Source: an uncultured Gammaproteobacteria bacterium (GTDB lineage: Bacteria > Patescibacteriota > Microgenomatia > UBA12405). Taken from it: DNA of 47,697 bases. A model generated the notes under the pieces. It saw only the letters and a program-made list of their open reading frames with translations. It was not told the origin of the DNA and did not search any database. Shown piece by piece: positions 30,695 to 47,697 of this stretch (position 1 is its first letter; the number at the start of each line of letters is the position of its first letter). The position numbers and the translations under genes were made by a program. The DNA is taken from assembly GCA_964464785.1 (NCBI GenBank), contig CAYXLS010000001.1:1-47697 (forward strand), in the 5' to 3' direction.

Positions 30695-32364
30695 AATTTT
30701 TGAATTATTTGAGCCAAAATGGTGTTGTTGGGATTGTATACGGTTTTAATTGTTTTAAATCCATCTAAATATTTTTTTGTAAAATCCATGTCTCCTGGGA
30801 TATCAAAACCTTGAAATAATAAAAATATATCCCCGGGTTGAGCAATTTGATTAACTGCGGATAAATGATCATTTTGTTTATAGTCATTTATAAAAAATAT
30901 ATTTTTGTAAAGTTTAAATCCTGATAACCCTGAAATTATATTATTAATATTATTATCATCTAGAAAACCATTGTTGGTAGAATATTTTTGATAAAAAGTA
31001 AAAGGTAATAAAGAATTGTACAAAGCATTGCTAATATAAATGTTTTTGTTTGTTTTTGGAATATTTTGGAATAACTCTTTATAACCATAATTCCAGACTT
31101 CAAAAGAATCTTTAGGATAATGAATAAAATATTCATGTGAGTAGCCAATAATTTGAATAATTAAAAAAAGGCTTAAAATAAATAAAAAAAATTTAACAAA
31201 AATATTTTTTAATAAAAAGCTTTTTTGTAATCCAAGAGCAGTGAAATATGACAATGGAACAATCATAATAAATAGTCTAGTAGCATGGGTACTGCCATCG
31301 ATAGTTAGAGATGATGCTATTGGTGCAATTAAAAACCAAAAAAACATTAATTTATTTAATTTATCCTTAAAATCAAGCTGAAAAATACCATAGAGGAGGA
31401 ATGGTAAATAGGAAAGGAAAATTAGTCCAAAATTTGGAATAGTGTGTCGATAATTTATTTGATCACCATATATAAAAAGAAAAGATAAAGAAAAAGAAGA
31501 AATATAATTTTTTGTAAATTCTCCTCCCCAAGCAGTGGCTTTATTGTGGAAAATAACTTCTATTTTAGGAGAAATAGCTGAAAAAGAGGTCCTTTTTTCA
31601 ATAATTTGGTTAATAATATTTTGATTATTAAAAATACTGATAAGATTGAAACGATTAGCGGCAGTGCCAAAAAATATTTGTAACGATAAAGGTAATATTA
31701 ATAATAAAAATAAAATTAAAGATATCAAAAAATTTTTAAATTTAATTTTAGAAATAAAATTTTTTAAATTAGTAACAATAATAGTAATAATAATTAAAGG
31801 AACAAAAATATTAGCGATGTTGTAGGTATAAAAACTAAGACAAAATATAAATATAGATAAATAGAGATATTTATTTTTACCAAAGTTTAAAAATTTATAG
31901 AAGAAAAATATTCCAGTTAGAATTAGTGATAGAAGTAAAGTAACTTCAAAAGAGGTACGACTATAATGAAAATGCCAAGGAGTAAAAGATAAGGCTATAG
32001 AGCCATAAAAAGCGAGAGTGCTAGATTTTGATAATAGTGATACTAGTTTATAAAAAATATATATACTAAAAACACCAAATAATATTGAGGGAAAACGCAC
32101 CCCAACTTCATTTAATCCAAGTAAAGCTATACTTGGTACAGTAGTATAAATTAATAAAGGAGCGCGTGACTCAGATAAAGATTGAATATAGGTAGGTAAA
32201 AAATTACCTTTATAATCGTGACCATTTTGAAATAAAGAATAGGCTTGATAACCGACATCAATTTCGTCTCCAAACAAACTTAGAGTATCTATTTTATAAA
32301 TTCGTAAAAAAAAAGTGATTAAAAGAAGTATAATTAAAGGCCAGTTTAATTTTTTAAATTTCAC
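30691..32364 (-). CDS. GT-C fold membrane glycosyltransferase, ArnT/PMT type, paralog 1
   Basis: 557 aa. FGDEIDVGYQAYSLFQNGHDYKG, GVRFPS and TPWHFHYSRTSFE. Confidence 0.7.
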   Translation of the reverse strand: MKFKKLNWPLIILLLITFFLRIYKIDTLSLFGDEIDVGYQAYSLFQNGHDYKGNFLPTYIQSLSESRAPLLIYTTVPSIALLGLNEVGVRFPSILFGVFSIYIFYKLVSLLSKSSTLAFYGSIALSFTPWHFHYSRTSFEVTLLLSLILTGIFFFYKFLNFGKNKYLYLSIFIFCLSFYTYNIANIFVPLIIITIIVTNLKNFISKIKFKNFLISLILFLLLILPLSLQIFFGTAANRFNLISIFNNQNIINQIIEKRTSFSAISPKIEVIFHNKATAWGGEFTKNYISSFSLSFLFIYGDQINYRHTIPNFGLIFLSYLPFLLYGIFQLDFKDKLNKLMFFWFLIAPIASSLTIDGSTHATRLFIMIVPLSYFTALGLQKSFLLKNIFVKFFLFILSLFLIIQIIGYSHEYFIHYPKDSFEVWNYGYKELFQNIPKTNKNIYISNALYNSLLPFTFYQKYSTNNGFLDDNNINNIISGLSGFKLYKNIFFINDYKQNDHLSAVNQIAQPGDIFLLFQGFDIPGDMDFTKKYLDGFKTIKTVYNPNNTILAQIIQKL

Positions 32365-33652
32365 TTTTTAAAAATTTAAAATAATATTTAAAACACATTA
32401 CTATAAGTATAAATGATAATAAACGGCAGATGACGGAATTGTTCCAATTTAAAAAGTTTTGTAAAAAGATTATTGAGGGATAATACCATAAATTGTAAAG
32501 ATTTAAAAAGTGAATTGTTGACAATAAAATTAATTGTTTTATTTTAATTTTGGTTTTTGGTAAGAAAAGTAATATGGTAATTAGTGGTAATATAGGGTAA
32601 AGATATCTTTCGTGCATATTAGTTAAAAAAATAAAACAGCCAAAAGCGCTGATAGTTAAAGACATAAATAAATTTATTAAGGTTAATTTGTTTTTAATAA
32701 ATTTAATCCAAACAGGAACTAAAAAAATAACATAAAGTAATCTTCCCCACAATTGATAAGTTAAACCAAAAAATTTGATATATTCAGAGTTTGAAAGATT
32801 GATACTAAATATAAGAGACCATAGATTAAAGGCATTTCCGTTTAACATACTACCCTGTCTATTTAAAACTCTATTGGTATACATATACCAAATCCATTGC
32901 AAAGGATTAAAACCGTCTAATGTGAATGGAATTACTAAAAGATATATGAAAAGTAAAAAAATAAAGGTAGGTAAAATATATTTTTTCCAATCTTTAATTC
33001 TTTTTACAAAAATAAGTCCAAAAATTGGTAAATAAATTATTAATGAAAGTTTAAAAAGAAAAGTTGTTAAAAATAAAATAATTCCTAAGAAGTATTTTTT
33101 TTGAAAAACTAAATATAATCCTAAAATTGCTAATAAATTAATTAAAGAATCAGTCTGTCCCCAAATGGTAGAATTGTAAATTAGAACTGGATTAAATAAA
33201 AAAAGATTGGCAGCAAAAAGAGCTTTTTTTGGGTTTATTTTTAACACTATTTTGTAAATTAAAAAACCAAGACCGATATCGGAAAAAATAAAAGGAAGCT
33301 TAACCATCCATGCATGTATATTTGCTTCAATATAAGGGATAATGAATGAGGGGAAAAAGGAAAATGTTTGATTTAAGGTTTGGATAATATTAAAAACTAA
33401 GTTTTTAATTAGGGCAGAAAAAGCAAATAGTAATATTGTGCCAATCGGTTGATTAGGCCAAGAAACTGACCAAAAAATATTTTCATAGAACTTTTTAGGG
33501 CCTAAGTCTAAAAATCTAATACCCCAATCGATGTGATTAAGAAGATCTGGATGCCAATGAAAAAAAATAAGTAAAAAAAGACGTAATATAAAAGCGATGA
33601 GTAAAATATTAGTTATCTTTGAAAATGTTTTTGCCATTTTTGACCAGACCAA
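32354..33652 (-). CDS. Polytopic membrane protein, probable GT-C glycosyltransferase of the Gpi18/PIG-V / DUF2029-like (COG5542) type
   Basis: 432 aa and almost entirely hydrophobic helices. First-loop motif HPDLLNHIDWGIRFLDLGPKKFY...WPNQPIG resembles the D...W...G...FY...YPP pattern of these mannosyltransferase-like families. The specific family call is tentative. Confidence 0.45.
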   Translation of the reverse strand: MVWSKMAKTFSKITNILLIAFILRLFLLIFFHWHPDLLNHIDWGIRFLDLGPKKFYENIFWSVSWPNQPIGTILLFAFSALIKNLVFNIIQTLNQTFSFFPSFIIPYIEANIHAWMVKLPFIFSDIGLGFLIYKIVLKINPKKALFAANLFLFNPVLIYNSTIWGQTDSLINLLAILGLYLVFQKKYFLGIILFLTTFLFKLSLIIYLPIFGLIFVKRIKDWKKYILPTFIFLLFIYLLVIPFTLDGFNPLQWIWYMYTNRVLNRQGSMLNGNAFNLWSLIFSINLSNSEYIKFFGLTYQLWGRLLYVIFLVPVWIKFIKNKLTLINLFMSLTISAFGCFIFLTNMHERYLYPILPLITILLFLPKTKIKIKQLILLSTIHFLNLYNLWYYPSIIFLQNFLNWNNSVICRLLSFILIVMCFKYYFKFLKSEI

Positions 33653-34413
33653 ATAATAAAATATAAAAAATAATGTTTAAATAGGCCGTGAAATTTTTTA
33701 CTACTGGGGACGAGACGTCGCCATTGATTATTAGTATCAATTATGTTTTTTCCACTAGTACCATGATAATGAATAATTTGACATGTTGGATAGTAAACAA
33801 TTTTTTTACCGCTTTTAATTACTTGACGACAGAGATCCATATCTTCATAGTAAAAAAAATATTTTTCATTCCATTTACCGATATATTCAAAATATTTTTT
33901 ATTGATGGCAATACAACCTCCGGAAATAAAACTAACTAAGCTTGGTTTATCACTTTTTGGTATGTATTTTGAATAAGCATTTCTACAAAGCCAAAATTCT
34001 TTAAAAGCGTTTAGACAGGTTTGTGGAGGGAAAACTGATGCTTGAGGTGACATATCGGGATTTAGGAATTTGGGTCCGATTAAACCTATCTTTTTATTTT
34101 TTTTAAGATAATTAATCATTTCTAATAAAGTTTTGTCAATTAGTTCTATGTCAGAATTCATAAAAACAATATATTCTGATGTGGCTGATTTTAGACCAAT
34201 ATTATTAGCTTTAGCAAAACCGTAATTATTATCTAATAATACATATTTGATATTTGGTATTTTTAGATTTTTGAGAATGTCTATAGTTTCATCGCTTGAA
34301 CCATTGTCAACGATAATTATTTCATTATTTGGAATATATTTATCTATGGATTTGATACATTTTTGAGTGATTTTTGCGGTATTCCAGGTGGGAATTATAA
34401 TTGAAAATCTCAT
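33613..34413 (-). CDS. Family 2 glycosyltransferase (COG1216 type)
   Basis: 266 aa. FSIIIPTWNTAKIT, IVDNGSSDET, FMNSDIE and YEDMDLC. The 40-nt overlap with the next gene makes that gene's start uncertain. Confidence 0.8.
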   Translation of the reverse strand: MRFSIIIPTWNTAKITQKCIKSIDKYIPNNEIIIVDNGSSDETIDILKNLKIPNIKYVLLDNNYGFAKANNIGLKSATSEYIVFMNSDIELIDKTLLEMINYLKKNKKIGLIGPKFLNPDMSPQASVFPPQTCLNAFKEFWLCRNAYSKYIPKSDKPSLVSFISGGCIAINKKYFEYIGKWNEKYFFYYEDMDLCRQVIKSGKKIVYYPTCQIIHYHGTSGKNIIDTNNQWRRLVPSSKKFHGLFKHYFLYFIIWSGQKWQKHFQR

Positions 34414-34417
34414 GTTG

Positions 34418-36682
34418 TTATACTGATTTGTTTTTGTATTTTTTAAAAATAATTAACCAAACTAAAAAAGTAAAACTAGAAATATAAAAACCGATATAAA
34501 ATGGTTTTGGTTTGTAAATAAATTCTACATTATTTTCCCCTTTTGGAATGTTTATTAATCGATAAATGTTTAAATACTTATTTATTGGTATTTCTTTATT
34601 GTTGATATAAGCTTTCCACCCAGGATACCAGGTGTCTCTTAAAATAAGGGTAGATTCATTATCGGTAGTGTTGGTAATAAATTTTATTCTATTTGATGAA
34701 TAATTTAGGTTAGAATAAGAACCTTGACCAGATTTATTAATGATTTCAACTCTGGGTTTTAAATTTTTATTTTCTAAAATACTTGTACTTTTGTATCTAA
34801 ATACTTCATTCCAGTTATCAGTATTTACTTTATGATTAAAATGATCACCGTCAGGAGAGATTACGTCTTGCTTATTATAGTTTAAAACTAAAAGATATTT
34901 TACGTTCCCTTCTCCAAGTGAATTAGAATCATAATTATCTATTTCTGAATATCTTGAAGAACTACCTTTACCTTGCATATTTATTTTGTTTTGAAAGAAA
35001 ATAGAGTATTCTTTTAAGGCCATTGGATCATAGCCTGAGGTGCTCTGAAGTTCATAAAATGACCATACATTTGGAGTCATTAATGGACCTTTTTCTTTTT
35101 CAATACGAAAAATAGATTTATCTGTTTTTAAAAATTTAGTTATATTAGTTTCTGGGTAAAGATATTCTTTTGATGTAAAGGGAAGATATTTCCACCCAAA
35201 TCTAAATAAATCAATAATTATAATTAAAATTAATATAATATTTTTCGCCTTAAAATTTTTAACAAATACTAAAATAATAGAAATTGTTATAGAAATTAAT
35301 AATGGAATTACTAAATTTCTCATGGCTATATAATAATTATTTTGATATCTAATAAGAGCCGGCGAGTTTTTGTAATTTAAATAGGTAGAGATGATAATAA
35401 AAACAAAATAAAATATATATATCCAATAATATTTAATATATTTTTTTAAACTGTGTATAGCTAAATTTTTAAAAAAATAAGTCACAAGAATACTTATACT
35501 AAAAGTATAGATAAAAGCTAATCTACCGGCTGCACTAGTCGAAATTAATGGTAACTTTAATTTATATATTAATTTCCCAAAGAATGTATCATAAATAAAT
35601 AATAACGAAATAAGAGTGGTATAGAAAAAGAATTTTTCAATTTTTAGCTTTTTGAAGTTAAATATACAAAATAAAATAGCAAATACAGTCAAAACACCAG
35701 TATAGATTATGGTTTCGTGATAGTTAAAATTACCCCAAAAGTTAAATGTAGTCGGATTTCCAAAATAATCGGGAGCAAATAGGGTGACAATTCTATCTAA
35801 AGATAATAAACCGTAATTATATTCTGATATGTAATTTTCATCGAATCTTACAGAATATTTTCCCATTTCCATTGTAGGTAATAGTTGAATAGACATTAAT
35901 AAAATACCCAATAAAACTGTTATTGTATACCAAAATATAGTTATTAATTTTTTAAATGATTTTTGATTAAAGTATTTATATATAAAATAAATACCAGAAA
36001 TAATTAATCCATAAACTAATGCTTGTAAGTGTCCAGAAGTCATCATTAAAAAATATAATATTGAAAGATATAAAATATGTTTGATTTTTTTAGTTTTAAA
36101 AAAGTTTTCAATACATAAAAAAATTAATGGTAACCAAATCATTGCAAAACCAGCTGTAACAAACTGTGACCAAGTAATCATAAAACCACTAAAGGCATAT
36201 GTAATTGTTCCTGCCAAAGTGGCAAAAAAGCTATTTGGATATATTTTTTTTAAAAATAAATTCATTGTAAAACAGCTAAATAGAAATTGAGATATTACTA
36301 AAAGTGTCCAACCATTAGCATCTCCAAAAAATAACATTAATAAATTAAACGGGTTAAGTACTCCGGAATGAAAATTTGCAAATAGAGGGTATCCAGAATA
36401 AGAATAAATATTCCATAAAGGGAATCTTAAACTTTTAAAAGAATTAATAATTATTTTTTTCCATACAAAAAATTGTGAAAAAACGTCGGAAATCAGAGGG
36501 TTTTTAATTGGAACATCAGTAACAAATCCACCCCATCTATGATCCATCCAAGGGAAATAGGCGCCTACTAACATATCACCAGGGAAAGGTATTTGTCCAA
36601 AAAATAAAGATTTATAAAAGAAAATAAAAACCAAAAAAATAATTAAAATAATCGAAAAATATTTTTTAAAAAAAATTATCAT
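34418..36682 (-). CDS. YfhO-family polytopic membrane protein (GT-C-like glycosyltransferase)
   Basis: 754 aa. N-terminus FPGDMLVGAYFPWMDHRWGG, many TM helices and a large C-terminal extracytoplasmic domain. That domain ends in RDTWYPGWKAYINNKEIPINKYLNIYRLINIPKGENNVEFIYKP plus a final TM helix, which is the characteristic YfhO C-terminal signature. Confidence 0.65.
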   Translation of the reverse strand: MIIFFKKYFSIILIIFLVFIFFYKSLFFGQIPFPGDMLVGAYFPWMDHRWGGFVTDVPIKNPLISDVFSQFFVWKKIIINSFKSLRFPLWNIYSYSGYPLFANFHSGVLNPFNLLMLFFGDANGWTLLVISQFLFSCFTMNLFLKKIYPNSFFATLAGTITYAFSGFMITWSQFVTAGFAMIWLPLIFLCIENFFKTKKIKHILYLSILYFLMMTSGHLQALVYGLIISGIYFIYKYFNQKSFKKLITIFWYTITVLLGILLMSIQLLPTMEMGKYSVRFDENYISEYNYGLLSLDRIVTLFAPDYFGNPTTFNFWGNFNYHETIIYTGVLTVFAILFCIFNFKKLKIEKFFFYTTLISLLFIYDTFFGKLIYKLKLPLISTSAAGRLAFIYTFSISILVTYFFKNLAIHSLKKYIKYYWIYIFYFVFIIISTYLNYKNSPALIRYQNNYYIAMRNLVIPLLISITISIILVFVKNFKAKNIILILIIIIDLFRFGWKYLPFTSKEYLYPETNITKFLKTDKSIFRIEKEKGPLMTPNVWSFYELQSTSGYDPMALKEYSIFFQNKINMQGKGSSSRYSEIDNYDSNSLGEGNVKYLLVLNYNKQDVISPDGDHFNHKVNTDNWNEVFRYKSTSILENKNLKPRVEIINKSGQGSYSNLNYSSNRIKFITNTTDNESTLILRDTWYPGWKAYINNKEIPINKYLNIYRLINIPKGENNVEFIYKPKPFYIGFYISSFTFLVWLIIFKKYKNKSV

Positions 36683-37566
36683 TTCTCAAAAATTTTAAAA
36701 ATTTCTTTATCGGTTAGTGTGGGAAATATTATTGGAGGAGGAAATTTTTTTAGTTGCTTTTTGGCGGCACGTATTATTTTTATGTAATTAGGTCCGGTTA
36801 AGATTCGACCAATTGTAGCCAGTTTGTTTTGAAATAGCATATTGGGTGTATCAATAAGTCGCCAGGTGTTTAGAAGTCGATTACGTTCTTTAACATAGTT
36901 CAAAAGAGATTTTGAAAATTTTGACATAGTAATTTCATGGTGATGTTCAACAACACATTTTGGATCCCATAAACATATATAACCAGATTTCCATGCTCGA
37001 TAGCCAATGTCTAAATCTTCAGAATAAAAAGGTTTGTAGATAGGATCAAAACCTCCAAGTTTTTGAAATAAAGACTTTCGAATTATTGAACTTCCGCCGG
37101 AAACCCAACCAGAGATATGAGTTTTAGTAATTTTTTTTGTACCAGGTTCATGCTGAAGATAACCACCTTTGAACATAAATCTAGCCCAATTTTCATGGCC
37201 TTTTTCGGCAAAACCTACACCAAAAACATCTTTATTTTTAAAATGTTTAATTGATTGGTCTAAATAATTAGGATATGGAAATATGTCATTGTTTAACAAA
37301 ACGATCAAATCACCGTTTGATTTTTTTATAGCATCATTGGTATTGGCGCCAAAACCTAAATTTTTTTTGTGACTAAGAATTCTTAGTTTGGGATAATTTT
37401 GTTGGAGACTTTTTGTATATTTAATACTTTCATCGTGTGAGGAATCGTCAGCTAATATTATTTCTTGAGCCTGAGAACTGTTTTTAATTATTGTTTCTAA
37501 ATTTTTTTTAAGTAAATCTTGGCCATTCCAGTTCGTTATGATTACAGATATTTTCATATTAACCAA
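36679..37566 (-). CDS. Family 2 glycosyltransferase (COG1216 type)
   Basis: 295 aa. ISVIITNWNGQDLL, LADDSSHDES, LLNNDI and YSEDLDIGYR. The start could be the ATG of MKISVII, three codons in. Confidence 0.8.
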   Translation of the reverse strand: MVNMKISVIITNWNGQDLLKKNLETIIKNSSQAQEIILADDSSHDESIKYTKSLQQNYPKLRILSHKKNLGFGANTNDAIKKSNGDLIVLLNNDIFPYPNYLDQSIKHFKNKDVFGVGFAEKGHENWARFMFKGGYLQHEPGTKKITKTHISGWVSGGSSIIRKSLFQKLGGFDPIYKPFYSEDLDIGYRAWKSGYICLWDPKCVVEHHHEITMSKFSKSLLNYVKERNRLLNTWRLIDTPNMLFQNKLATIGRILTGPNYIKIIRAAKKQLKKFPPPIIFPTLTDKEIFKIFEK

Positions 37567-39543: not shown

Positions 39544-40451
39544 GATCCTTTGTTTAATTTACCTAGATAAAAATCAATAATTCCTCTTTTTTTCCATTTA
39601 GATAAATTTGTGGAAAATAATTGTTTTATTGATTCTCTTAATAGAGCAAATTTACTTCTTAAAGAAGCATTTTTAATGCCAAAATATAGCCTATTTCTGG
39701 TCATGAAATAATCATGAAGATTTCCTCCACTTTTTGATGAGCCAGAATTCAAATGCCAGATAAAGGATTTATAAATATAAGCTAATTTAAAATTATTTTT
39801 TTTGGCTTTTTGACAAAAATCTAAATCTTCTAAATACATAAAGTAATTTTCATCTAATAAGCCTATTTTTTTAAAAACATTTGCATTTATCAACAAACAA
39901 CATCCTGTTAAGAAATCAACTTGGTCATTAATTTTATCGAATTGACCTTTGTCGACTTGATTAACTCCAATATTACTTCCATAAATATTATTCCAGTCAA
40001 TTTGACCACCAACAGACCAAATAACTTTTCCAAGTTCGTCTTTTGAATATCTGTCTTGGTGATATTCAAAACCTGGTGCAAAATAAATTTTAGGACCAAC
40101 AATGTCATACCCACTATTTGTCCCTTCAATAAGATATTTTAAAAAATTAGAATCAACGATTACATCGTTGTTTAACAATAAAATGTAATCATATTTTTCT
40201 TTTATTGCTTTTTTAATACCAATATTATTACCAACGTAACCAAGGTTTGAATCTGTCTGAATTAGATTTATATTTGGGTTTTTTGAATATTTTTTTTTAA
40301 ATATTTGAAATGATTTGTCAGAAGAATTATTGTCGATTAGAAAAATTTTATACTTAAAACCATTAGAAGTTATTTTTCTAAGCGAGTCAAGAGTATCGAG
40401 AGTCAATTGTGGTTGATTCCAGTTGAGTACTATAATGGAGATTTTGATCAT
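39534..40451 (-). CDS. Family 2 glycosyltransferase (COG1216 type)
   Basis: 305 aa. ISIIVLNWNQPQLT, IDNNSSDKS, LLNNDV and YLEDLDFC. Confidence 0.8.
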   Translation of the reverse strand: MIKISIIVLNWNQPQLTLDTLDSLRKITSNGFKYKIFLIDNNSSDKSFQIFKKKYSKNPNINLIQTDSNLGYVGNNIGIKKAIKEKYDYILLLNNDVIVDSNFLKYLIEGTNSGYDIVGPKIYFAPGFEYHQDRYSKDELGKVIWSVGGQIDWNNIYGSNIGVNQVDKGQFDKINDQVDFLTGCCLLINANVFKKIGLLDENYFMYLEDLDFCQKAKKNNFKLAYIYKSFIWHLNSGSSKSGGNLHDYFMTRNRLYFGIKNASLRSKFALLRESIKQLFSTNLSKWKKRGIIDFYLGKLNKGSWQ

Positions 40452-40454: not shown

Positions 40455-41390
40455 TTAAAAATTTTTTGAAATCAGATTAAGCCAGTGACGAATTTTTATA
40501 ATAACTTTTTTAAAAATATTTGGAGAATATTCTTTTTGAAAATATTTTATAAACCAGTGATCATATTCATAATTGGCCTCAAGATTAGCTGAAACAAATG
40601 ATTCTTTTAGAAATTGTTTATCTGATGAACCTTCTTTTTCCCACAATTTTGCATATATTAATCCAATAGCAAAAGCTTGAAGCAAACAAAAAATTAGTCC
40701 AGGTAGTCCATCTTTGTAACCTTCAGAAAAATAAAAACGACTATTAAATTCTTGAATTGGTTTGAGTATAAAATCGCCAGTTTTTACTTTGTACTCCTTT
40801 GAGTGGAGTTCATCTGCTTGAATACTACTATACCTAATAGCTCGAGTAATAAATTGATTAATAGATTGATAGTTATCGTGTTTTATAGCTAATTTGTCTG
40901 AATCTAGAAGGGTTAGACAATTTCCTTTGGTAATTGGTTGGCTATGGATTTCTTTTTGCCAAGTAACACTACCTTTTTTAAAAAACCTAATTAAATAATC
41001 TGGCCAACAGTTTGCATGACGAATCCATTTACCAAAAATAAAATTTTGACGAGGAATTTTGACAAAATCAACGTCATTCCTTAAAGTAATTTTTTTCAAT
41101 TCCTTTTTTAATGTTTTTTGAAGATATTCGTCTGGATCTAATAATAAAATCCAACTTCCTGTTGCCTTTGATAGGGCAAAATTTCTTGCAGGTTCGACAT
41201 ATTTCATAGGTCGATAACTATATACTTTTGCTCCAAAAGTTTTGGCTATATTGACACTGTTATCGGTAGACCTCATGTCTACTATGATAATTTCGTCGGC
41301 AATATCTTTAATTGATTTTAAACATTTGGTTAAATGCTCTGATTCGTTTCTAACATTAATAACCACAGAGATACTATTTTTTGATTTCAT
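40455..41390 (-). CDS. Family 2 glycosyltransferase (COG0463, WaaE/KdtX-like) with an extra C-terminal region
   Basis: 311 aa. ISVVINVRNESEHL, VDMRSTDNS, LLDPDE and IPRQNFIFGKWIRHANCWPDYLIRFF. Confidence 0.75.
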   Translation of the reverse strand: MKSKNSISVVINVRNESEHLTKCLKSIKDIADEIIIVDMRSTDNSVNIAKTFGAKVYSYRPMKYVEPARNFALSKATGSWILLLDPDEYLQKTLKKELKKITLRNDVDFVKIPRQNFIFGKWIRHANCWPDYLIRFFKKGSVTWQKEIHSQPITKGNCLTLLDSDKLAIKHDNYQSINQFITRAIRYSSIQADELHSKEYKVKTGDFILKPIQEFNSRFYFSEGYKDGLPGLIFCLLQAFAIGLIYAKLWEKEGSSDKQFLKESFVSANLEANYEYDHWFIKYFQKEYSPNIFKKVIIKIRHWLNLISKNF

Positions 41391-41406
41391 AGATTAAATA
41401 AGTTTA

Positions 41407-43116
41407 TCATTTTTGAACCTTAAATATTTTAATTTCTTCATTGTTGTATATTTCATCAACCTGAAGATCACTTAAATTTGTTTTTATTTGTTGATCGGTA
41501 GTTAAATAAATATAGTCAATATTATTATTTATTAAAAAACCTCGATTATTATATTTATCGTTTTTTGAAAAAAAGTTTGTTGACTCAAGGCGCCTTTTTT
41601 GCCAGTCAAATCCAGTGATGTCTAGATTCATTTCATCTTCTAAATAAACTGTTTTTTGGCTAAATGCAGATACATAAGATGTGGTTTCATAAGCATAAAG
41701 AGGAATAGGAGTATTTAGGTTATTTTTTTTATACTTATCATAGGGATAGGTTAAAACAATACCTGAAGGTTGGTCTTTTAAAAAATTTAAAGCAATTATT
41801 TCATTATTAGGTAAACAACTAGGTGCTGGATTACCAAAATAATCTTTTAGCGTACCAACGCTTCCAATAGAGGCAAGAATTAATAGACATAATAATATTA
41901 TTTTATGTTTTTTATAAATATTAGATAAAAATTTTGCTAAATAAAAATTGGTAATAAATAAAAAATAATATAAAAATTGGATTGTATTCCAAGCTGTCCC
42001 CTTTTGAACAAAAAATATTGTAAACATGAAAGCAATTGACATTAATAATATAAATAAGATATCTATATTTTTTGTTTTATTTTTAATAAAATCGTTTATT
42101 AATTTAGCTATACCAAAGATACGAATTCCTAGGTTGCCAATTAAAAATATTCCAATCAGAAATAATTCGATAATTGTTGTAATAATAAAATTTGTTTGAT
42201 TGTAACGATACGAAGCCAATTTTGGCCAATATAACTTATCTATTGATTCAATCATTGAATGAGTAAACCAAAATGGCTTAAATTCTAATAAGTTGGCCTT
42301 ACCCAAAACACCTAAGTTTTTTAGAATTATCAATGAAATTATTCCCATTGATAAACAAATTGATAGATTGAATCGAGTAATTATTTTAGATTTTGAAGAA
42401 GAAATAATTAGATAAATTGAAAGAGACAAACCAATTAAGATAGCTGAATATACTTTTACATAACAAAGAAGACTTAGAATTAAACCAATGGATAGACCCC
42501 AAAAAATTGAACCGTTATCTTGGTGTTGAAACCAGAGAATCAATCCGATGAGTAAAATTATCAAAGATAAGGCATAGGGTGGGTTAAGTAGAGTTGAAGC
42601 TGACTGCATTGACCAAAATATAGATTCTCCAGCTATTTGACCTGACTTGATAAGGGTTATAATCCAACCAAAGGAAGAGGCAAAATAATTTAAAAAAACA
42701 AAGAATAGAGAGGTTAGATGATTTTTGGTTACTATTTTGGCAAATTTGTATGATAAAAAACCAATTATTATTGCAAAAATTATAGGTAATATTTGAAAAT
42801 ATAAAAATGAAGGATTAATTTGTGTAATTTTTGAAATTAAGGCTACAAACAAGTCGTAACCCCAATGGTAATTTGATAAAGAGGTTCCTGAATAAATTGG
42901 ATTATTGGGAGGGATATTTTGTTTCAATTGATTGATAAGACTTAGATGCCAAATGGCATCATGACCGTTAGGACCCCAGAAACCGATACCATACTCATAC
43001 TTTAAGCCACTTTTAAACATAGTTATGGATAATAGTAGACTCGATATTGTGATTAAAACTATCGTTTTTATTTTTTCTTTTGAGGTAGAAAACATAATAT
43101 TTGTTGCCAAAACCAA
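41407..43116 (-). CDS. Orphan polytopic membrane protein with a C-terminal extracytoplasmic domain. Possible polymerase, ligase or GT-C-like enzyme, family not recognised
   Basis: 569 aa. At least 10 hydrophobic helices. Early loop motif FWGPNGHDAIWHLSLINQL. C-terminal roughly 150 aa are hydrophilic (YPYDKYKKNNLNTPIPLYAYETTSYVSAFSQKTVYLEDE...). I recognise no signature. Confidence 0.35.
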   Translation of the reverse strand: MVLATNIMFSTSKEKIKTIVLITISSLLLSITMFKSGLKYEYGIGFWGPNGHDAIWHLSLINQLKQNIPPNNPIYSGTSLSNYHWGYDLFVALISKITQINPSFLYFQILPIIFAIIIGFLSYKFAKIVTKNHLTSLFFVFLNYFASSFGWIITLIKSGQIAGESIFWSMQSASTLLNPPYALSLIILLIGLILWFQHQDNGSIFWGLSIGLILSLLCYVKVYSAILIGLSLSIYLIISSSKSKIITRFNLSICLSMGIISLIILKNLGVLGKANLLEFKPFWFTHSMIESIDKLYWPKLASYRYNQTNFIITTIIELFLIGIFLIGNLGIRIFGIAKLINDFIKNKTKNIDILFILLMSIAFMFTIFFVQKGTAWNTIQFLYYFLFITNFYLAKFLSNIYKKHKIILLCLLILASIGSVGTLKDYFGNPAPSCLPNNEIIALNFLKDQPSGIVLTYPYDKYKKNNLNTPIPLYAYETTSYVSAFSQKTVYLEDEMNLDITGFDWQKRRLESTNFFSKNDKYNNRGFLINNNIDYIYLTTDQQIKTNLSDLQVDEIYNNEEIKIFKVQK

Positions 43117-44528
43117 TTAATCTGATGTTTAGATGTCATATAAGTGTATAGACAATAAAATAGAAGTCCAATAGCTATACTTCCTATTAAAGTCAATAGT
43201 GCTGAAAATGCTAAATGTTGGAACCCTAAAATTAGAATAATCATAATTAAAGAACCCAATAATGGCTGAAAAGTGATTTTTAAAACATTAATGTCAAATA
43301 GTTTTTTGGCGACAATCCAAACTATCACCGAACTTAATCCTACTAATAAAGTAGCTACTGAGGTACCGATATATCCATATTTTATGGTAAGATAAGGATA
43401 AAGAATCCAAGTTAGTACTGTCCACATAACCATAAATTTGGTGGTGAGAGTGATTTTTCCAACTGCATTAAATGCATTTGTTAAAGGACTGGTTACTGAG
43501 GCAATAGCAATATTGATGCTATAAAAATATAAAGGAATAATGGCTGGTAACCATTTGGTGTATTTTGGAATTAGATTAATTAGACTTGGAGCAATAAGAG
43601 CAATACCAGCTGATGTAGGAAATACAAATAGGGCTATAAAATACAGACTTTTTTCTAATGATTTTTTAAGATACTCTGGGTTATCTTGAAGTCGGGAAAA
43701 TGTGGGGAAAGTTACTTTCATTATGGCATCCATAAAACTTAGAGGAATACGTGGTCCTTTTTGAGCCCATGACAAAATTCCAAAACCATCACGGCCTAAA
43801 AGCCCGGCTACAAAAATATTTGATAATTTATCCTTAGCCATTGAGATAAATGAGTTTAACTGATAAGGAATACCATATTTAAAAAGAGATTTAGCACTTT
43901 GATAGGAAAAAGAAAAACCAATCGGCCATGGACTGAAACGATAAATAATAACTAATCCTAAAAAGCTACGGATAAAAGTTGCGATGGCATAGGAATATGC
44001 TCCAAAACCTAAAAAAGCAAATAAGACCGCTATTGTATAAAAACTAATATTTTCAATAATATCGACAGTAGATATTAATTTAAAATTTAGTTTTCTTTCT
44101 AATAATACCGATGGAATTGTTTTGAGAGATGCGGCAAAAAAAGAAAAACATAAGGAAGCAAATATTAAACTTTCTTTTGGCCCATAAGATCTAGATATTT
44201 TAAGTTTCTGAAAAATAAATGAAATTACAATTAAAGATAAAATTACTAAAATTTGTTGAATTAAGAATGTGCTCTGAAGATCTTTTTTCTCGACTTCTTC
44301 TTTTTTTTGAATAAGAGCACCAGCTAAACCAATATCTGAAAAATACCCTAAAATTCCAACTGATTCAGCAACAATTGCAAATAAACCCACTTCTCCGGTT
44401 CCCAAAAGAATTGTTAAAATAAAAAATCCAAGAGTTGAAACTGCCTGAATTCCAATATTTCTGAATGATAAAAATAATACGTTTTTGGTAGTTTTTTGTT
44501 TTATTTCTTGTAAATCAAGCGAAGCCAT
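43068..44528 (-). CDS. wzx: MOP-superfamily oligosaccharide/polysaccharide flippase (Wzx/RfbX type)
   Basis: 486 aa with about 12-14 helices. N-terminus VLFLSFRNIGIQAVSTLGFFILTILLGTGEVGLFAIV is typical of Polysacc_synt family flippases. The 49-nt overlap with the next gene makes that gene's start uncertain. Confidence 0.6.
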   Translation of the reverse strand: MASLDLQEIKQKTTKNVLFLSFRNIGIQAVSTLGFFILTILLGTGEVGLFAIVAESVGILGYFSDIGLAGALIQKKEEVEKKDLQSTFLIQQILVILSLIVISFIFQKLKISRSYGPKESLIFASLCFSFFAASLKTIPSVLLERKLNFKLISTVDIIENISFYTIAVLFAFLGFGAYSYAIATFIRSFLGLVIIYRFSPWPIGFSFSYQSAKSLFKYGIPYQLNSFISMAKDKLSNIFVAGLLGRDGFGILSWAQKGPRIPLSFMDAIMKVTFPTFSRLQDNPEYLKKSLEKSLYFIALFVFPTSAGIALIAPSLINLIPKYTKWLPAIIPLYFYSINIAIASVTSPLTNAFNAVGKITLTTKFMVMWTVLTWILYPYLTIKYGYIGTSVATLLVGLSSVIVWIVAKKLFDINVLKITFQPLLGSLIMIILILGFQHLAFSALLTLIGSIAIGLLFYCLYTYMTSKHQINWFWQQILCFLPQKKK

Positions 44529-46258
44529 AAAGGTTTAGATAGATACAATATTAAAATAATCCAAGTAACTAATGAAATATAATTTGAAATACTACGAACT
44601 TTAGTATTTCGAAGTTTTACCATAATTTGATGATCACCTGAAGGTAAATTTATAATTAAACGGCCTAATTCTGGTTCAATTTCGGTTGGAACTAATTTAC
44701 CATTTGAAGTAACTTCAAATTCTGGAAAAGCTAATTGAGCCAAAATAACTTTTGAGTCACGACTAAGATGAAGATCAAATATCATCCAATCGGTCCCTTT
44801 TTTACCATTTGAAACTGTATAAAAACTTTCAGATGGATCAATTTCGTCAACATAATCTTTGGCAGGCTTCTGGGCGGCAATACGAGCAGTTTTGGGAAGA
44901 TAGTCATAAATTCCTGATGTTACTTGATTTGTCCAGGCTTTACCTGAAAATTTCTGTTCATCAGTAATGGGTCCATAAGTAATAGGAGTAAAATATTTTA
45001 TATTAATTAATAATATAAATAATCCTAAAATTAACACTAAAATTTCTTTATTTTTTGAAAAAAACTTATTGATAATAAAAATTAAACCGCCAGCGCTAAA
45101 AGAAAATAAAAATATAGTATGGTTTAAAAATCTCCAAGGAAATTGGATTTTTTGAATGATTGGTATTAAAAACCAAATATTTGTTGATTTGTTGTGGGTC
45201 ATAAAAACTGTACCAAGACCCATCAAAATTATTATTAATAATAAAACATATTGAGAATCAATTTTAGAAATTTTTTTGTTTCTAACATTTCTATAAATTA
45301 TTATTAAAACATATATAATAATTATTAGAGGGATAATCCAGTGAAAATAACCAATATTAAACGACATATCATCATTTGGCCCCCAAACAGAAGCACCATC
45401 ACCCCAAAAATTACTGATAAATAATTGATAAAGTCCGGCAAAATGAACTGAAAAATGATAGTAACCTTCAAACATAGTATTAATCTTGACAAGTTTAGTT
45501 TCTAATAGAACTGGAAAAGTATAAAAAGCAGCTAAAGCTGTAGTTAATAAGCCAGAAAAAAATAATTTTAGTATAATTTCAGTTTGTTTTTTTATAAAAG
45601 CCCAAAAAGGTTTTTTGTATTTTTCAAAAATCCAAAATAATATCCAAATAAATAAAATTGGAGTAAAAGTCAAAGCCATAGGGTTATGAGATAAAAGTAA
45701 TCCAGTAAATGACAAACTAAGTCCAATAATACTTTTTATTTTTTTGTCTAATATAACCTTTTTTGAGAAATAAAAAATTAGAGGGAAAAATACTGCTGCC
45801 CAAGCTTCGTTCATGGCACCACGAACAAATATATTTAATGCGTGGTATGGGGCATAGGTATAAAAAAGAGATGACAAAAATCCACCAATAGGACCAAATA
45901 TTGAGCTGGCCAATAGATACATAAAAAATGAAGATAATAAAATTTGGAAAATTGCAGTTGCCTTGATAGAAGCAACGAAAGATAAACCAAAAGTTCTAAA
46001 AACTTGACCTACTATATAAGGCATTGGAGGATAAAAATTAAACAAAGGGTAACCGTAACCGTAACCAAGGTCTGGTGTCCATCTGCAGGGAATCTGACCG
46101 TCTTGAATACATTTTTCAAATTCCAATTGACGAATCATTTGCATATCATCGTGCATATTAAAATAAATATTTGGGCGAAGTAAAAATAAGATTGCCGGAA
46201 AACTAAAAAAAAATGTTGCAATTGGCCAAAAATATTTACGTTTTATTAATTTTCCCAT
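44501..46258 (-). CDS. Polytopic membrane protein of the PTPS-related (COG5617 / PF10131-like) family, a predicted GT-C-like glycosyltransferase
   Basis: 585 aa. Early motif NMHDDMQMIRQLEFEKCIQDGQIPCRWTPDLGYGYGYPLFNFYPPMPY matches my memory of the HD...H...R...G.IP.RW....G.GYP.F.FY.P signature. C-terminal soluble domain plus a final TM helix. Confidence 0.5.
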   Translation of the reverse strand: MGKLIKRKYFWPIATFFFSFPAILFLLRPNIYFNMHDDMQMIRQLEFEKCIQDGQIPCRWTPDLGYGYGYPLFNFYPPMPYIVGQVFRTFGLSFVASIKATAIFQILLSSFFMYLLASSIFGPIGGFLSSLFYTYAPYHALNIFVRGAMNEAWAAVFFPLIFYFSKKVILDKKIKSIIGLSLSFTGLLLSHNPMALTFTPILFIWILFWIFEKYKKPFWAFIKKQTEIILKLFFSGLLTTALAAFYTFPVLLETKLVKINTMFEGYYHFSVHFAGLYQLFISNFWGDGASVWGPNDDMSFNIGYFHWIIPLIIIIYVLIIIYRNVRNKKISKIDSQYVLLLIIILMGLGTVFMTHNKSTNIWFLIPIIQKIQFPWRFLNHTIFLFSFSAGGLIFIINKFFSKNKEILVLILGLFILLINIKYFTPITYGPITDEQKFSGKAWTNQVTSGIYDYLPKTARIAAQKPAKDYVDEIDPSESFYTVSNGKKGTDWMIFDLHLSRDSKVILAQLAFPEFEVTSNGKLVPTEIEPELGRLIINLPSGDHQIMVKLRNTKVRSISNYISLVTWIILILYLSKPLWLRLIYKK

Positions 46259-46279
46259 TTTTATATTTTAACAAGCTAT

Positions 46280-47697
46280 TTAATTAAGTTGATAAAGTAG
46301 TAGTTTATCAAAATCTGGTTTATCAAAAGAATCTATAAGACTTAAGCCGTCTTGTTCCAAACTAACAGTATTAAAACGTGATTTATTGATTAATAGATAA
46401 ACTTCATCACCATATTCTTTGGCTTCTATCAAATTTTCGGGAACCGTAGCGAACCCTAACCCCTGACCTATTATGGTAAATTGTTTGGCTTTGTTGGCAT
46501 ATATTTGAAGTCCGTTGGGTAAAGTACCAAAGGATCCTTCGGTACCAACAATTATGTTTGATACTAAAGATCTTTGTTTTAGATAATTAAATGATTCTTT
46601 GATACCCCAACCTGAAGTCCAGTCGACTAAATATCCAGTTTCGGATGATGGTAGTTTTTGGTTAAAAGGATCGGTGGACAATTTATAGATAAAATTAATA
46701 TTGACTAGAAAAATAAATAAAATTAAAATTAATTTAAAATAATTATTTTTTATTTTGATAATTAAATTGTAAAAAATAATTGAGATTAACGCTAAAAATG
46801 GTGGTAAAGTAAATAAAATATAACGGGCAGTAAACACTTTTGCCAGAGCAGAATTGACGATAAGAGGTAGAAGCCACCAAGTTGCTAGAATTAAATATCT
46901 AATATTTAGTATTTGGTATGTATTTTTCTTATAAAGCGAATATAACAAACCAACTATAAAAATAATTAGAACTGGCAATGATATATAATGAAGATAAATT
47001 TCTAAGGCATTAGCCAGATGAGGTTTGAGAGGGTCTAACGGATGTTTTAAAATTTCTGAAAACGTCCAAACATAATCTTTGTTCCTTAAAGTAATTTGAT
47101 GGAACTGAGGGCCAAGACGAAGTAGGTTGTAGATTAGAAAACCGATGGAAGCTGAAATTAACGGATATGTAAAAGATAATATTTTTTTGTAGTTGATAGC
47201 CAAATAAGTAGTGAGTGATAAAACGACAAAATAGATTGCTGGTGATTTGGTTAGCCAGGCTAGACCTAGGGAGAGACCTAAAAAAAGTGAATTGGTAATA
47301 TTTGGATACTTAGCTAATAAAAGTGATAAAAATAATGACATTACACCAAATAATGACAAAAGATTGTCGGTTAAAGCTAAGCGATCAAAGAAAAAAGTAA
47401 AGGGAATCAAGCAATAAACCATAAAAACAAAAATAAATAAATAGTAGTGTTTAGAGATATTCTTTTTTAAGTAAGTAGATATATTTTTTTGACTATCTTG
47501 AAAACTTACTATAACTACAGAAATTAATGAAATCAAAATAGCAATACCAAAACCAGAAAAAATAGAGATAATTCTGCCTGAGACTAAAGGATCAGAAAAT
47601 ATTTTTAGAGTAATAGCGTTTAACCACATAAATAAAGGCTGTTTGCCATCTGTTTGAGGGATAAACCGTAAATTTTCTTCTGATTGGATAATTTGAG
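46280..47697 (-). CDS. GT-C fold membrane glycosyltransferase, ArnT/PMT (COG1807) type, with the N-terminus truncated by the window edge
   Basis: The reading frame stays open upstream of the track's ATG (47629) to the last base of the window (...QIIQSEENLRFIPQTDGKQPLFMWLNAITLKIF). The expected DE-motif first loop is missing, so the true start lies beyond 47697. Multiple TM helices and a C-terminal soluble domain. Confidence 0.65.
   Translation of the reverse strand, partial: QIIQSEENLRFIPQTDGKQPLFMWLNAITLKIFSDPLVSGRIISIFSGFGIAILISLISVVIVSFQDSQKNISTYLKKNISKHYYLFIFVFMVYCLIPFTFFFDRLALTDNLLSLFGVMSLFLSLLLAKYPNITNSLFLGLSLGLAWLTKSPAIYFVVLSLTTYLAINYKKILSFTYPLISASIGFLIYNLLRLGPQFHQITLRNKDYVWTFSEILKHPLDPLKPHLANALEIYLHYISLPVLIIFIVGLLYSLYKKNTYQILNIRYLILATWWLLPLIVNSALAKVFTARYILFTLPPFLALISIIFYNLIIKIKNNYFKLILILFIFLVNINFIYKLSTDPFNQKLPSSETGYLVDWTSGWGIKESFNYLKQRSLVSNIIVGTEGSFGTLPNGLQIYANKAKQFTIIGQGLGFATVPENLIEAKEYGDEVYLLINKSRFNTVSLEQDGLSLIDSFDKPDFDKLLLYQLN

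Follow-up and report, generated by a model that had tools for sequence, protein, structure and literature searches.

A conserved Wzx and GT-C core with variable GT-C genes in a probable cell-surface glycan operon of Candidatus Shapirobacteria

Results

A conserved nine-gene core followed by variable accessory genes

The genes at 32354-47697 of the window (the whole stretch of 47,697 nucleotides analysed here) probably constitute the downstream two-thirds of a cell-surface glycan operon common to the lineage, working stepwise and extended by variable GT-C genes. The host lineage is Candidatus Shapirobacteria (Microgenomates, CPR/Patescibacteria), an ultrasmall bacterium. The region comprises twelve co-directional, overlapping genes: five GT2 and one GT4 glycosyltransferases, a Wzx flippase and five polytopic proteins (Table 1). 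Checking of the open reading frames and Pfam searches bore out the positions and the GT2, GT4, Wzx and YfhO assignments proposed in an earlier note made from the sequence alone, and placed all genes on the minus strand. Adjacent genes are spaced by -49 to +21 nt, the coding share is 99.6%, and there was no enrichment of promoter-like or terminator-like sites in the region. Glycosyltransferase genes cover 71% of the whole window, which encodes, as had been counted, 10 GT2 and 3 GT4 cytoplasmic enzymes.

Table 1 Genes of the 32354-47697 region, from the window end inwards. Loci are evaluable loci with an orthologue, unless indicated.
Coordinates	Strand	Length (aa)	Assignment	Pfam match	Loci
46280..47697	-		PMT_2-like GT-C glycosyltransferase, N-terminus cut by window end; first core gene inside window	PMT_2 E=5e-4 (under cut-off)	56/60
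44501..46258	-	585	GT-C glycosyltransferase of PMT_2/YfhO/PTPS_related neighbourhood; core	PTPS_related E=0.027, 13 bits (under cut-off)	59/61
43068..44528	-	486	Wzx-type MOP flippase; core	Polysacc_synt_3 E=9e-45; Polysacc_synt E=3e-22	66/68
41407..43116	-	569	Unannotated GT-C family, ~11 transmembrane helices, C-terminal alpha/beta ectodomain; core	none	
40455..41390	-	311	GT2; core	Glycos_transf_2 E=6e-18	68/68
39534..40451	-	305	GT2; core	Glycos_transf_2 E=1.7e-16	63/64
38752..39543	-	263	GT2; core	Glycos_transf_2 E=1.8e-14	61/62
37559..38737	-	392	GT4 (GT-B fold), only one in region; core	Glycos_transf_1 E=3e-22	56/59
36679..37566	-	295	GT2; final gene of strictly conserved core	Glycos_transf_2 E=2.8e-23	51/55
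34418..36682	-	754	YfhO-family GT-C glycosyltransferase; variable accessory	PF09586 YfhO, 63.9 bits (cut-off 28.5)	17/48 (YfhO-like gene at this position)
33613..34413	-	266	GT2; semi-conserved	Glycos_transf_2 E=7e-30	35/46
32354..33652	-	432	GT-C of Gpi18/PIG-M/GT87-like group; variable accessory	none for the protein itself	18/44 (mostly low identity)

Synteny was compared across 80 species-level related genomes, taken from the 374 species with a match. The nine genes from 46280 to 36679 were colinear in 91-100% of evaluable loci, with order and orientation kept at 35-90% identity; the best-conserved cytoplasmic glycosyltransferase of this core was 40455 (median identity 66%). Where YfhO (35% of loci) or the Gpi18-like gene of 32354 (41%) had a counterpart, this was mostly a paralog of ~30% identity. 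True orthologues of 34418 (65-66%) were restricted to the closest relatives, and the locus L085 carries a 754-aa PF09586 gene at that position. The seven-gene PMT array (20316-32364), into which 32354 leads, differed in copy number between relatives (5 members versus 7, plus extra PMT_2 genes). The core being colinear and these genes variable, the locus is therefore described as a lineage-wide core operon with variable GT-C add-ons, and the single integrated pathway proposed in the earlier note holds for the nine genes and not for these variable ones.

The same variation in presence, identity and copy number would be expected of a mosaic island, in which independent two- or three-component modules (a polyprenyl-phosphate-sugar GT2 plus a GT-C) serve different envelope polymers, and Wzx an unrelated polysaccharide; the alternation of GT2/PMT_2 pairs upstream in relatives also fits it. 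We consider this improbable for the region as a whole, given the conserved order of the core, its overlapping genes, the existence of a Wzx-GT-C fusion (see below), and the six cytoplasmic glycosyltransferases, none of which had a polyprenyl-phosphate sugar synthase as its best NCBIfam match. It probably describes the accessory genes correctly, and not the core.

The polytopic proteins are GT-C glycosyltransferases of distinct families

All five polytopic proteins of the region are GT-C glycosyltransferases, by Pfam, profile (including hhalign) or predicted-structure (Foldseek) evidence. As previously suggested, no paralogy among them was detectable (BLAST E>0.01); the 46280 protein showed a weak relationship to the upstream array (E=2e-5). 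Every GT-C begins with a basic N-terminus and TM1, after which the first outward-facing loop carries conserved Asp/His residues as a motif. Three of the five lack an above-threshold Pfam match on their own sequence, which might suggest transporters or other non-glycosyltransferase membrane proteins. That reading is hardly credible: all Foldseek matches at E <= 0.001 were GT-C enzymes (22 for 41407, 8 for 44501), MFS and ABC transporters appeared only at E>0.05 with TM-scores of ~0.1, the 32354 profile matched PIG-M and ALG6, and 34418 exceeded the YfhO cut-off. The 32354 matches and the Foldseek results effectively refute a transporter identity. The up to 13 full-length GT-C-like proteins previously counted in the window become 12 supported and one presumed, because the membrane domain of the TPR-tailed 1135 protein is unconfirmed as GT-C (hhalign probability 7%).

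The 46280 protein is truncated, as had been noted, since its reading frame runs off the end of the window; it is missing ~40-60 residues, including TM1 and the acidic motif of the first loop. It matched the PMT array profile (hhalign probability 91%, E=1e-6, 334 columns), and its orthologue in L001 carries PF13231. The label PTPS-related previously given to 44501 proved weak, the protein being closer to PMT_2/YfhO: hhalign gave 73% against the PMT array and 68% against YfhO, and some of its >1,956 homologues exceed the PMT_2 cut-off (P0193, 35 bits). One NCBI record of these homologues bears the name GT39 protein. Invariant residues of 44501 include N34-M35-x-D37 in the first outer loop, where D38 is present in at least 90% of sequences, and the Cys50/Cys58 pair; a C-terminal beta-sandwich ectodomain (~470-549) precedes a C-terminal transmembrane helix. 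Its AlphaFold2 model (pLDDT 76, pTM 0.82) matched OST-B, PglB, Pmt4, AftA, ArnT and Emb.

In the accessory part, the YfhO-like assignment of 34418 stood (Table 1). The 32354 protein has H34, D36, N39, H40 and D42 invariant in its first outer loop, and its homologues are named 'Gpi18-like mannosyltransferase' by JGI. Its family profile matched GPI mannosyltransferase 1 (E=2e-9) and ALG6 (0.008) in the PDB, one homologue (P0296) matched GT87 at 6.5e-4, and hhalign related it to the PMT array (87%).

A large unannotated GT-C family is encoded next to Wzx

The 41407 protein, described earlier as an orphan, has >1,125 homologues at 50-73% identity, and its family comprises 1,579 clusters at 50% identity. 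No sequence match was found in Pfam, NCBIfam or the PDB, and hhalign probabilities against the other GT-C families of the window were below 2%; on its predicted structure, this is a large GT-C family named in no database. The AlphaFold2 model (pLDDT 84, pTM 0.87) matched STT3 (1.7e-8), DPY19, PglB, AglB and AftA. The best structural neighbours were STT3, PglB and AglB (1.7e-8 to 6e-5, TM-score ~0.5-0.55); AftA fitted about equally to STT3 (TM-score 0.54/0.52), with the lowest rmsd. Residues invariant across the family include D53 and H57 (first outer loop), K221, Y223, Q371, N377 and Q380, and R332 is conserved in 94%. The invariant K221 together with R332 suggests that phosphate is bound by basic residues, as in ArnT/DPY19/Emb, and not by a metal.

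These structural matches raise the alternative of protein glycosylation: 41407, with its oligosaccharyltransferase fold, would move the Wzx-flipped oligosaccharide en bloc onto secreted proteins (S-layer, pilins), and the PMT-like GT-Cs would O-glycosylate proteins, as do actinobacterial Pmt and eukaryotic PMT/TMTC. Like STT3/PglB/AglB (CAZy GT66), 41407 combines a polytopic N-terminal domain with a C-terminal alpha/beta ectodomain, which matched the globular domain of AglB, conserves an Asp in its first outer loop and is genetically coupled to a flippase for lipid-linked oligosaccharides. Members of the PMT array exceed the PMT (PF02366) cut-off, the window encodes the TPR-tailed polytopic protein at 1135, and Wzx matches the NCBIfam 'O-glycosylation flippase' below threshold. 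We nevertheless judge this alternative unlikely. The motifs WWDYG, DK/MI and TIXE/SVSE are absent from 41407, the look-alike strings 'DYFG' and 'SMIE' being conserved in only ~30% of family representatives; the model has ~11 transmembrane helices versus 13, and the family profile matched no oligosaccharyltransferase sequence in the PDB. The lipid A transferase ArnT likewise falls within PF02366. An alpha/beta ectodomain above the active site is generic to prokaryotic GT-C enzymes (PMC10265970).

The wzx gene overlaps both adjoining GT-C genes. Its NCBIfam matches (MOP flippase, O-glycosylation flippase, TuaB) were all under the equivalog cut-offs. In L084, a single short contig, one uninterrupted ORF directly after the 44501 orthologue joins Wzx to an ectodomain and a GT-C resembling 41407. 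Because of this one-contig fusion, adjacency and conservation, 41407 is the best candidate consumer of the lipid-linked glycan that Wzx flips, which it would polymerise or transfer en bloc. Against this assignment, Foldseek puts oligosaccharyltransferases first for 44501 too, so that fold ranking does not separate donor types. No NCBIfam equivalog cut-off was reached by any of the six cytoplasmic glycosyltransferases of the region; the top match of 39534, under cut-off, was a rhamnosyltransferase subfamily, and hydropathy indicated one C-terminal hydrophobic or amphipathic helix in 40455.

Proposed pathway and comparison with known systems

Returning to the favoured reading, a stepwise cell-surface glycan operon, we infer the following donor and acceptor chemistry, order of steps and division of work among the GT-Cs. 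At the inner membrane face, the five GT2 and one GT4 enzymes would build up an oligosaccharide bound to polyprenyl phosphate as carrier, after initiation by an enzyme encoded outside the window, and Wzx would carry it to the outer face. There 41407 would use it as donor, for polymerisation or for en bloc transfer to an envelope acceptor, and the PMT_2-like 44501 and 46280, YfhO, the Gpi18-like protein and the PMT array would add further sugars from polyprenyl-phosphate monosaccharides. In relatives, ArnC/PpgS/Dol-P-hexose-transferase-like GT2 genes alternate with PMT_2 genes directly upstream of the 46280 orthologue, and these GT2 enzymes may supply such donors. Among the 38 ORFs of the window there were no Bac_transf/WecA, Wzy, Wzy_C/WaaL or LCP domains. 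Of the classical Wzx/Wzy route, no phosphoglycosyltransferase for initiation, no polymerase and no ligase were found in the window.

The best match in logic is the Gram-positive "Wzx + GT-C" multicomponent glycosylation of Lactococcus (Wps) and Streptococcus (GacIJKL), also called 'complex' or four-component transmembrane glycosylation (PMC9574508; PMC8035078). In the experimentally described scheme, a GT-A-initiated lipid-linked oligosaccharide is exported by a Wzx-family flippase, polymerised by the GT-C WpsI and transferred by the GT-C WpsJ, with three-component side-chain systems in addition (PMC9574508); the order proposed in the earlier note, building inside, flipping by Wzx and GT-C action outside, matches it. 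The likenesses to the region are: cytoplasmic GT-A/GT-B enzymes building the lipid-linked sugar or oligosaccharide; a Wzx-family (12-TM MOP) flippase; GT-Cs, not Wzy/WaaL/LCP, for polymerisation (WpsI) or acceptor transfer (WpsJ, GacL); further three-component systems, also built on GT-Cs, for side-chain sugars; and GT-C components without sequence conservation, recognised by fold only. In contrast, neither a GacI/WpsA-type initiator with its GacJ/WpsB activator, nor a Wzz-like WpsH, nor rhamnan (ABC-transporter) backbone genes were found in the region, and no GacJ/WpsB-like activator in the window. Three conserved GT-Cs flank Wzx, with up to ten more after, in a CPR host, and throughout a whole class the locus keeps its genes and their order, unlike the strain-variable Wps/GacIJKL loci.

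The mycobacterial/corynebacterial envelope (AftA GT85, Emb GT53, PimE/MptA GT87) likewise has many GT-C families acting in series on one glycan with polyprenyl-phosphate sugars, and 32354 is GT87/PIG-M-like. The region differs in that its proteins show no sequence similarity to AftA or Emb, that genes for making arabinose or galactofuranose donors are absent, and that a Wzx flippase is central to the operon, which the mycobacterial routes are not known to use. Compared with the YfhO/CsbB three-component glycosylation of teichoic acids in Firmicutes, no GtrA/GtcA-type small flippase was identified in the region, nor a GtrA-like one in the window, and YfhO is accessory, not core; 34418 is a true member of the YfhO family. 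ArnC/CsbB-like GT2 genes are present in the wider cluster, at 17621 in the window and as two upstream GT2 genes in relatives.

Gene content and packing of the island

The 47.7-kb window (GC ~27%) holds 38 plausible genes in an ORF listing of frames of at least 100 aa, all but one of those from position 2912 onward lying on the minus strand, and glycosyltransferase genes make up 71% of its length. The 12 genes between 32354 and 47697 are tightly packed: neighbouring genes overlap by up to 49 nt or lie at most 21 nt apart, and coding sequence accounts for 99.6% of the bases. Promoter- and terminator-like sites showed no excess over shuffled sequence in a scan that is uninformative at 27% GC. The frame of 46280 (genes are named by their start coordinate) stays open up to the window end and the gene is therefore N-terminally truncated, as the earlier note had described it.

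Pfam confirmed the 10 GT2 and three GT4 enzymes counted previously in the window. The accompanying figure of up to 13 GT-C proteins stands for 12 of them, the thirteenth (1135) being presumed only; this GT-C density, 12 supported plus one presumed in 47.7 kb, is counted as new. All-against-all BLASTP likewise bore out the division of the membrane proteins, the seven upstream genes being paralogs (27–38% identity among them) and the five polytopic proteins of the sub-cluster having no detectable paralogy to one another; a weak relation of 46280 to the array (E=2e-5) was the sole link there between the two groups. Gene 43068 is a Wzx/MOP flippase (153.6 bits against a cut-off of 23; ~13 hydrophobic segments, ~12–14 transmembrane helices being expected), and 34418 is a member of the YfhO family, above the gathering cut-off. 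None of the six cytoplasmic glycosyltransferases reached an NCBIfam equivalog cut-off. A GtrB/ArnC-like identity for 40455 was rejected: there is a single hydrophobic helix at its C-terminus instead of two, and neither ArnC nor PpgS is among its matches at E<=1e-5.

Features of the window and of related loci and proteins, with coordinates or gene starts
Source	Position	Strand	Feature	Basis
Window	108-1085	plus	CofD-related/YvcK-like gene	156 bits (TIGR01826 cut-off 196)
Window	1135-2901		TPR-tailed polytopic protein	
Window	2912, 4480, 8743, 14393		Radical SAM with B12-binding domain	
Window	5940, 10134, 12373		Radical SAM with SPASM domain	
Window	8087, 16823		Methyltransferases	
Window	17621		ArnC/PpgS-like GT2	
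Window	20316-32364		Array of seven PMT genes	
Window	25147-25764		205-aa ORF within the array	
Window	32354	minus	Gpi18-like protein, 432 aa	
Window	33613, 36679, 38752, 39534, 40455	minus	GT2	Pfam
Window	34418	minus	YfhO	PF09586, 63.9 bits (cut-off 28.5), E=1.4e-17
Window	37559	minus	GT4	Pfam
Window	41407-43116	minus	Polytopic protein, 569 aa from TTG	Longest ORF
Window	43068	minus	Wzx	Polysacc_synt_3, E=9e-45
Window	44501	minus	Polytopic protein, 585 aa	
Window	46280	minus	PMT_2-like protein, truncated	
L084	1868-6787		Wzx fusion, single 1,639-aa ORF	
L085	5861-9220, 11280-19437		Array/PMT_2 differences and 156-aa ORF after YfhO	
L017, L020, L026, L028, L029, L034, L053, L054, L064, L070, L076, L079	Just upstream of the 41407 orthologue		~400-aa soluble domain	
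P0361-P0456	Within the protein		~400-aa soluble domain	

A conserved nine-gene core with variable GT-C accessories

CPR/Patescibacteria are ultrasmall episymbionts with a genome of ~1 Mb, for the most part not yet in culture, and to our knowledge their surface chemistry is essentially unknown; nothing relevant to this operon or to the 41407 family in CPR, Patescibacteria, Shapirobacteria or Microgenomates was found in the literature searched. When each GTDB species was represented by a single genome and scanned with two peptides conserved in the 41407 family, 374 species yielded a relative, and the named homologues are nearly all from Candidatus Shapirobacteria, Woesebacteria or Microgenomates. 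In the best 80 loci of these 374 species, each queried by tblastn with all proteins of the window, the order 46280 - 44501 - Wzx - 41407 - 40455 - 39534 - 38752 - 37559 - 36679 is kept on one strand in 91–100% of the loci long enough to judge, with median identities of 51–66% for the nine genes. The GT2 gene 33613 was found in 76% of the loci, a YfhO-like gene in 35% and a Gpi18-like gene in 41%, most matches to the last two being ~30% identical and thus paralogs rather than orthologues. Upstream of the 46280 orthologue, the relatives carry the series GT2 - PMT_2 - GT2.

The earlier note had read the sub-cluster as one integrated pathway whose sub-blocks should travel together. This holds for the nine-gene core, which is colinear, but not for YfhO, the Gpi18-like gene and the array, which vary. 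From this pattern the sub-cluster is a lineage-wide core operon, continuing past the window end, with variable GT-C accessories. Assembly of the island as a mosaic of independent modules probably does describe the accessory genes, whereas for the core it is contradicted by the colinearity and the gene overlaps. The contig of a close relative (L085, 221 kb) carries the same island, with five array members against seven in the window and two additional PMT_2 genes after YfhO, so the GT-C copy number in the island changes between related species.

The core operon is colinear across hundreds of Shapirobacteria/Microgenomates species, a degree of conservation that points to a conserved envelope glycoconjugate and not to a strain-variable antigen. 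The host lineage and the class-wide conservation of a core of nine (or more) genes are new; the core is a defined unit for heterologous expression, and the variable GT-C additions could be behind a diverse surface, recognition of hosts or escape from phages. Many of the GTDB representative contigs with a Shapirobacteria-type operon (L003, L005, L008, L010 and others) are titled 'uncultured Gammaproteobacteria bacterium', and single contigs 'Clostridia bacterium' and 'Candidatus Methanoperedens sp.' (L065, L068); such titles have the look of placeholders or of errors in binning.

Protein 41407 belongs to a large GT-C family

Previously called an orphan, 41407 has more than 1,125 homologues at 50–73% identity, all of them hypothetical proteins and none with a Pfam domain, and an exhaustive profile search extended the family to 1,579 clusters at 50% identity. 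Pfam, NCBIfam and the PDB sequences gave no match to the protein, the family profile has no PDB match at E<=10, and a sequence link to the other GT-Cs of the window was rejected (hhalign, <2% against the 44501, 32354 and array profiles). The public gene call is 537 aa long; we favour the 569-aa form because most homologues have 562 aa and align from about residue 1–7.

The AlphaFold2 model is confident (pLDDT 84, pTM 0.87) and has ~11 transmembrane helices. Foldseek gave 22 matches with E<=0.001, every one a GT-C enzyme (TM-scores 0.41–0.55), including STT3 (1.7e-8, TM 0.55), DPY19, PglB, AglB and AftA (TM 0.54/0.52); transporters appeared only at E>0.05, with TM-scores of ~0.1. The protein thus combines the 8–13 transmembrane helices and acidic first-loop residue of GT-C enzymes with similarity to their solved structures. 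For the third trait of that superfamily, a lipid-phosphate-linked sugar donor, the context is the neighbouring and once fused Wzx. That the polytopic proteins are instead transporters, the outcome named earlier as refuting the family assignments, is excluded, their folds and profiles being those of GT-Cs. The N-terminus of 41407 is basic. Among 127 divergent representatives of the family D53 and H57 are each conserved in 98%, and the invariant positions are G37, D53, H57, Y83, F107, P111, N178, K221, Y223, P281, F324, N328, Q371, N377, Q380, Y384 and Y481, with R332 at 94%. This unannotated family offers a short list of invariant residues to mutate.

Assignment of 41407 as an oligosaccharyltransferase (OST) was considered and rejected. 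There is no WWDxG motif, and the nearest equivalent, D425-Y426-F-G428, is conserved in only 25–65% of the 127 representatives (D425 in 28%); the 'SMIE' at 287–290 of close relatives, a candidate for TIXE/SVSE, has its E290 in only 31% of the family. In these relatives 'SMIE' lies in the long loop, and the last transmembrane helix is followed by 'DYFG'; both drop to ~30% across the 127 members and are therefore chance resemblances to TIXE and WWDYG. Nor is there detectable sequence homology to the GT66 enzymes STT3/PglB/AglB (profile against PDB; Pfam). AftD, PglB, ArnT and AglB all have an alpha/beta ectodomain that covers the active site (PMC10265970), and the match of 41407 to the C-terminal domain of AglB is consequently not OST-specific. 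We file 41407 as a putative new GT-C family with a predicted OST/DPY19/AftA-like fold, and not as an OST. What is new here is a large GT-C family that adjoins Wzx, is once fused to it and has no counterpart in Pfam, NCBIfam or the PDB sequences.

Proposed coupling of 41407 to the flippase

The wzx and 41407 genes overlap by 49 nt, and they are neighbours in 66 of 68 loci. In one locus (L084), directly after the 44501 orthologue, a single ORF joins Wzx, a ~590-aa ectodomain and a 41407-like GT-C, in a frame uninterrupted under table 11 with one terminal stop. The locus is a single short contig (38% GC, from one Logan assembly), and the fusion is thus supportive of Wzx-41407 coupling, not decisive.

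The long family members (850–1,160 aa) were considered as further Wzx fusions and rejected, Wzx being present only in the L084 protein (P0403). In the others, a signal or transmembrane segment at the N-terminus comes with a ~400-aa soluble domain. This domain precedes or is fused to a 41407-type GT-C in 14 of 82 loci and in 41 of the 149 top family representatives, and bears the strings 'NPVRG..FW', 'ADQFSTDGYQIWG' and 'GLEND'. It has no Pfam or PDB match, the sole hint being a weak one to DUF3863 (3e-4), and is absent from the window.

The other membrane proteins

The sequence of 32354 itself has no Pfam match. Its homologues are annotated "Gpi18-like mannosyltransferase" (JGI), and the family profile (32 sequences) matches PDB structures of GPI mannosyltransferase 1 (E=2e-9) and ALG6 (0.008), and the PMT array profile at 87% (hhalign). 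The Gpi18/DUF2029-like label given earlier is hence sound at the GT-C level, by profile homology to characterised Gpi18/GT87/PIG-M-like enzymes, but fixes no single CAZy family, the GT87/DUF2029 match of one homologue (E=6.5e-4, 20 bits) lying below the cut-off of 25.

The PTPS-related label of 44501 is weak (PF10131, 13.3 bits against 26.4, E=0.027; orthologues weak too). The window protein has no PMT_2 (PF13231) match in the Pfam search; homologues ~60% identical to it pass that cut-off of 26.1 (P0193, 35.2 bits; P0222, 27.9 bits), and one NCBI record among the homologues is named GT39 protein. Its AlphaFold2 model (pLDDT 76, pTM 0.82) matches OST-B, PglB, Pmt4, AftA, ArnT and Emb in Foldseek, with a predicted C-terminal beta-sandwich followed by a transmembrane helix, and the family profile aligns with the PMT array at 73% and with YfhO at 68% (hhalign). 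The truncated 46280 scores 20.7 bits for PMT_2 against the same cut-off; the full-length orthologue of L001 bears the PF13231 match, and 46280 aligns with the array profile at 91% over 334 columns (hhalign).

The four full-length GT-Cs of the sub-cluster share a basic N-terminus followed by transmembrane helix 1 and, in the first loop, a conserved Asp/His motif, predicted from sequence to lie at the outward-facing position expected of a GT-C active site; the corresponding portion of 46280 falls past the window end. Within the PMT array, the 205-aa ORF has four hydrophobic segments and no Pfam match, and weakly matches residues ~273–331 of two array members (BLAST E=0.035–0.35); it may be a paralog remnant or a small accessory membrane protein.

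Proposed assembly of the glycan

None of the 38 window ORFs contains a Bac_transf, Glycos_transf_4, Wzy_C or LytR_cpsA_psr domain (Pfam), and L001, L002 and L085 are likewise without phosphoglycosyltransferase, Wzy, WaaL/Wzy_C or LCP domains. Without phosphoglycosyltransferase, Wzy or ligase in the window or its annotated relatives, the classical Wzx/Wzy scheme does not fit. The same logic is described for the multicomponent transmembrane glycosylation pathways of Gram-positive bacteria. The C55-P-GlcNAc of Streptococcus pyogenes is made by GacI/J and flipped by GacK, of the Wzx family, and its sugar is transferred by the GT-C GacL; in Lactococcus lactis WpsC-F elongate a lipid-linked unit, the Wzx-family WpsG flips it, the GT-C WpsI polymerises it and the GT-C WpsJ transfers it to rhamnan, three-component systems adding side-chain sugars besides (PMC9574508). 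The present locus shares with these systems a Wzx-family flippase and GT-Cs with no Wzy or ligase. As to the GT-A initiator for the C55-P-sugar and its small activator (GacI/GacJ, WpsA/WpsB), no GacI-type initiator, GacJ-like activator or GtrA-like flippase was found in the window, and no small 3-TM activator ORF (GacJ/WpsB type) fits within 32354-47697. ArnC/PpgS-like GT2 genes lie outside the sub-cluster only, at 17621 in the window and upstream in the relatives. The upstream GT2s of the relatives, with ArnC, PpgS and dolichyl-phosphate hexose transferase as best matches, all below equivalog cut-offs, are putative polyprenyl-phosphate sugar synthases.

Beside the observed families, folds, packing, synteny and fusion, we infer the following for donors, acceptor and order of steps: the five GT2 and one GT4 enzymes would build a glycan in the cytoplasm, Wzx would flip it, 41407 would consume it by polymerisation or en bloc transfer, and the PMT_2-like, YfhO, Gpi18-like and array GT-Cs would decorate it outside from polyprenyl-phosphate monosaccharides. 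This assembly logic is a known one, and the general interpretation in the earlier note is textbook; the scheme would extend the "Wzx + GT-C" logic outside Firmicutes. A protein glycosylation system, for which the OST-like fold of 41407, the PMT-family array and the TPR-tailed protein 1135 speak, we regard as possible but less likely. Going beyond the proposed scheme, the 41407 family might comprise CPR-wide en bloc transferases of OST fold, coupled and sometimes fused to Wzx, that attach an oligosaccharide, conserved and assembled beforehand, to proteins of the surface or to peptidoglycan, a speculation to which we give little credence; if true, Microgenomates would have in this family their counterpart of PglB/AglB (or LCP/WaaL), and it would found a new GT-C/CAZy family.

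The remainder of the island

The membrane domain of 1135 has ~8 TM helices and 'GDFVSDDY' in its first loop, and the TPR tail resembles that of OGT (E=3e-16), an architecture that recalls TMTC-type enzymes. The membrane domain was not confirmed as GT-C (7% against the PMT array in hhalign; PDB matches covering the TPR tail alone). The stretch from 2912 to 16787 holds seven radical SAM genes, among which GT2/GT4 genes and two methyltransferases are interspersed. This radical SAM density is unusual for a glycan locus, and the set may point to C-methylation or some other radical chemistry on sugars, or to a linked peptide. The CofD-related/YvcK-like gene stands at the island edge and belongs to a UDP-GlcNAc-binding family.
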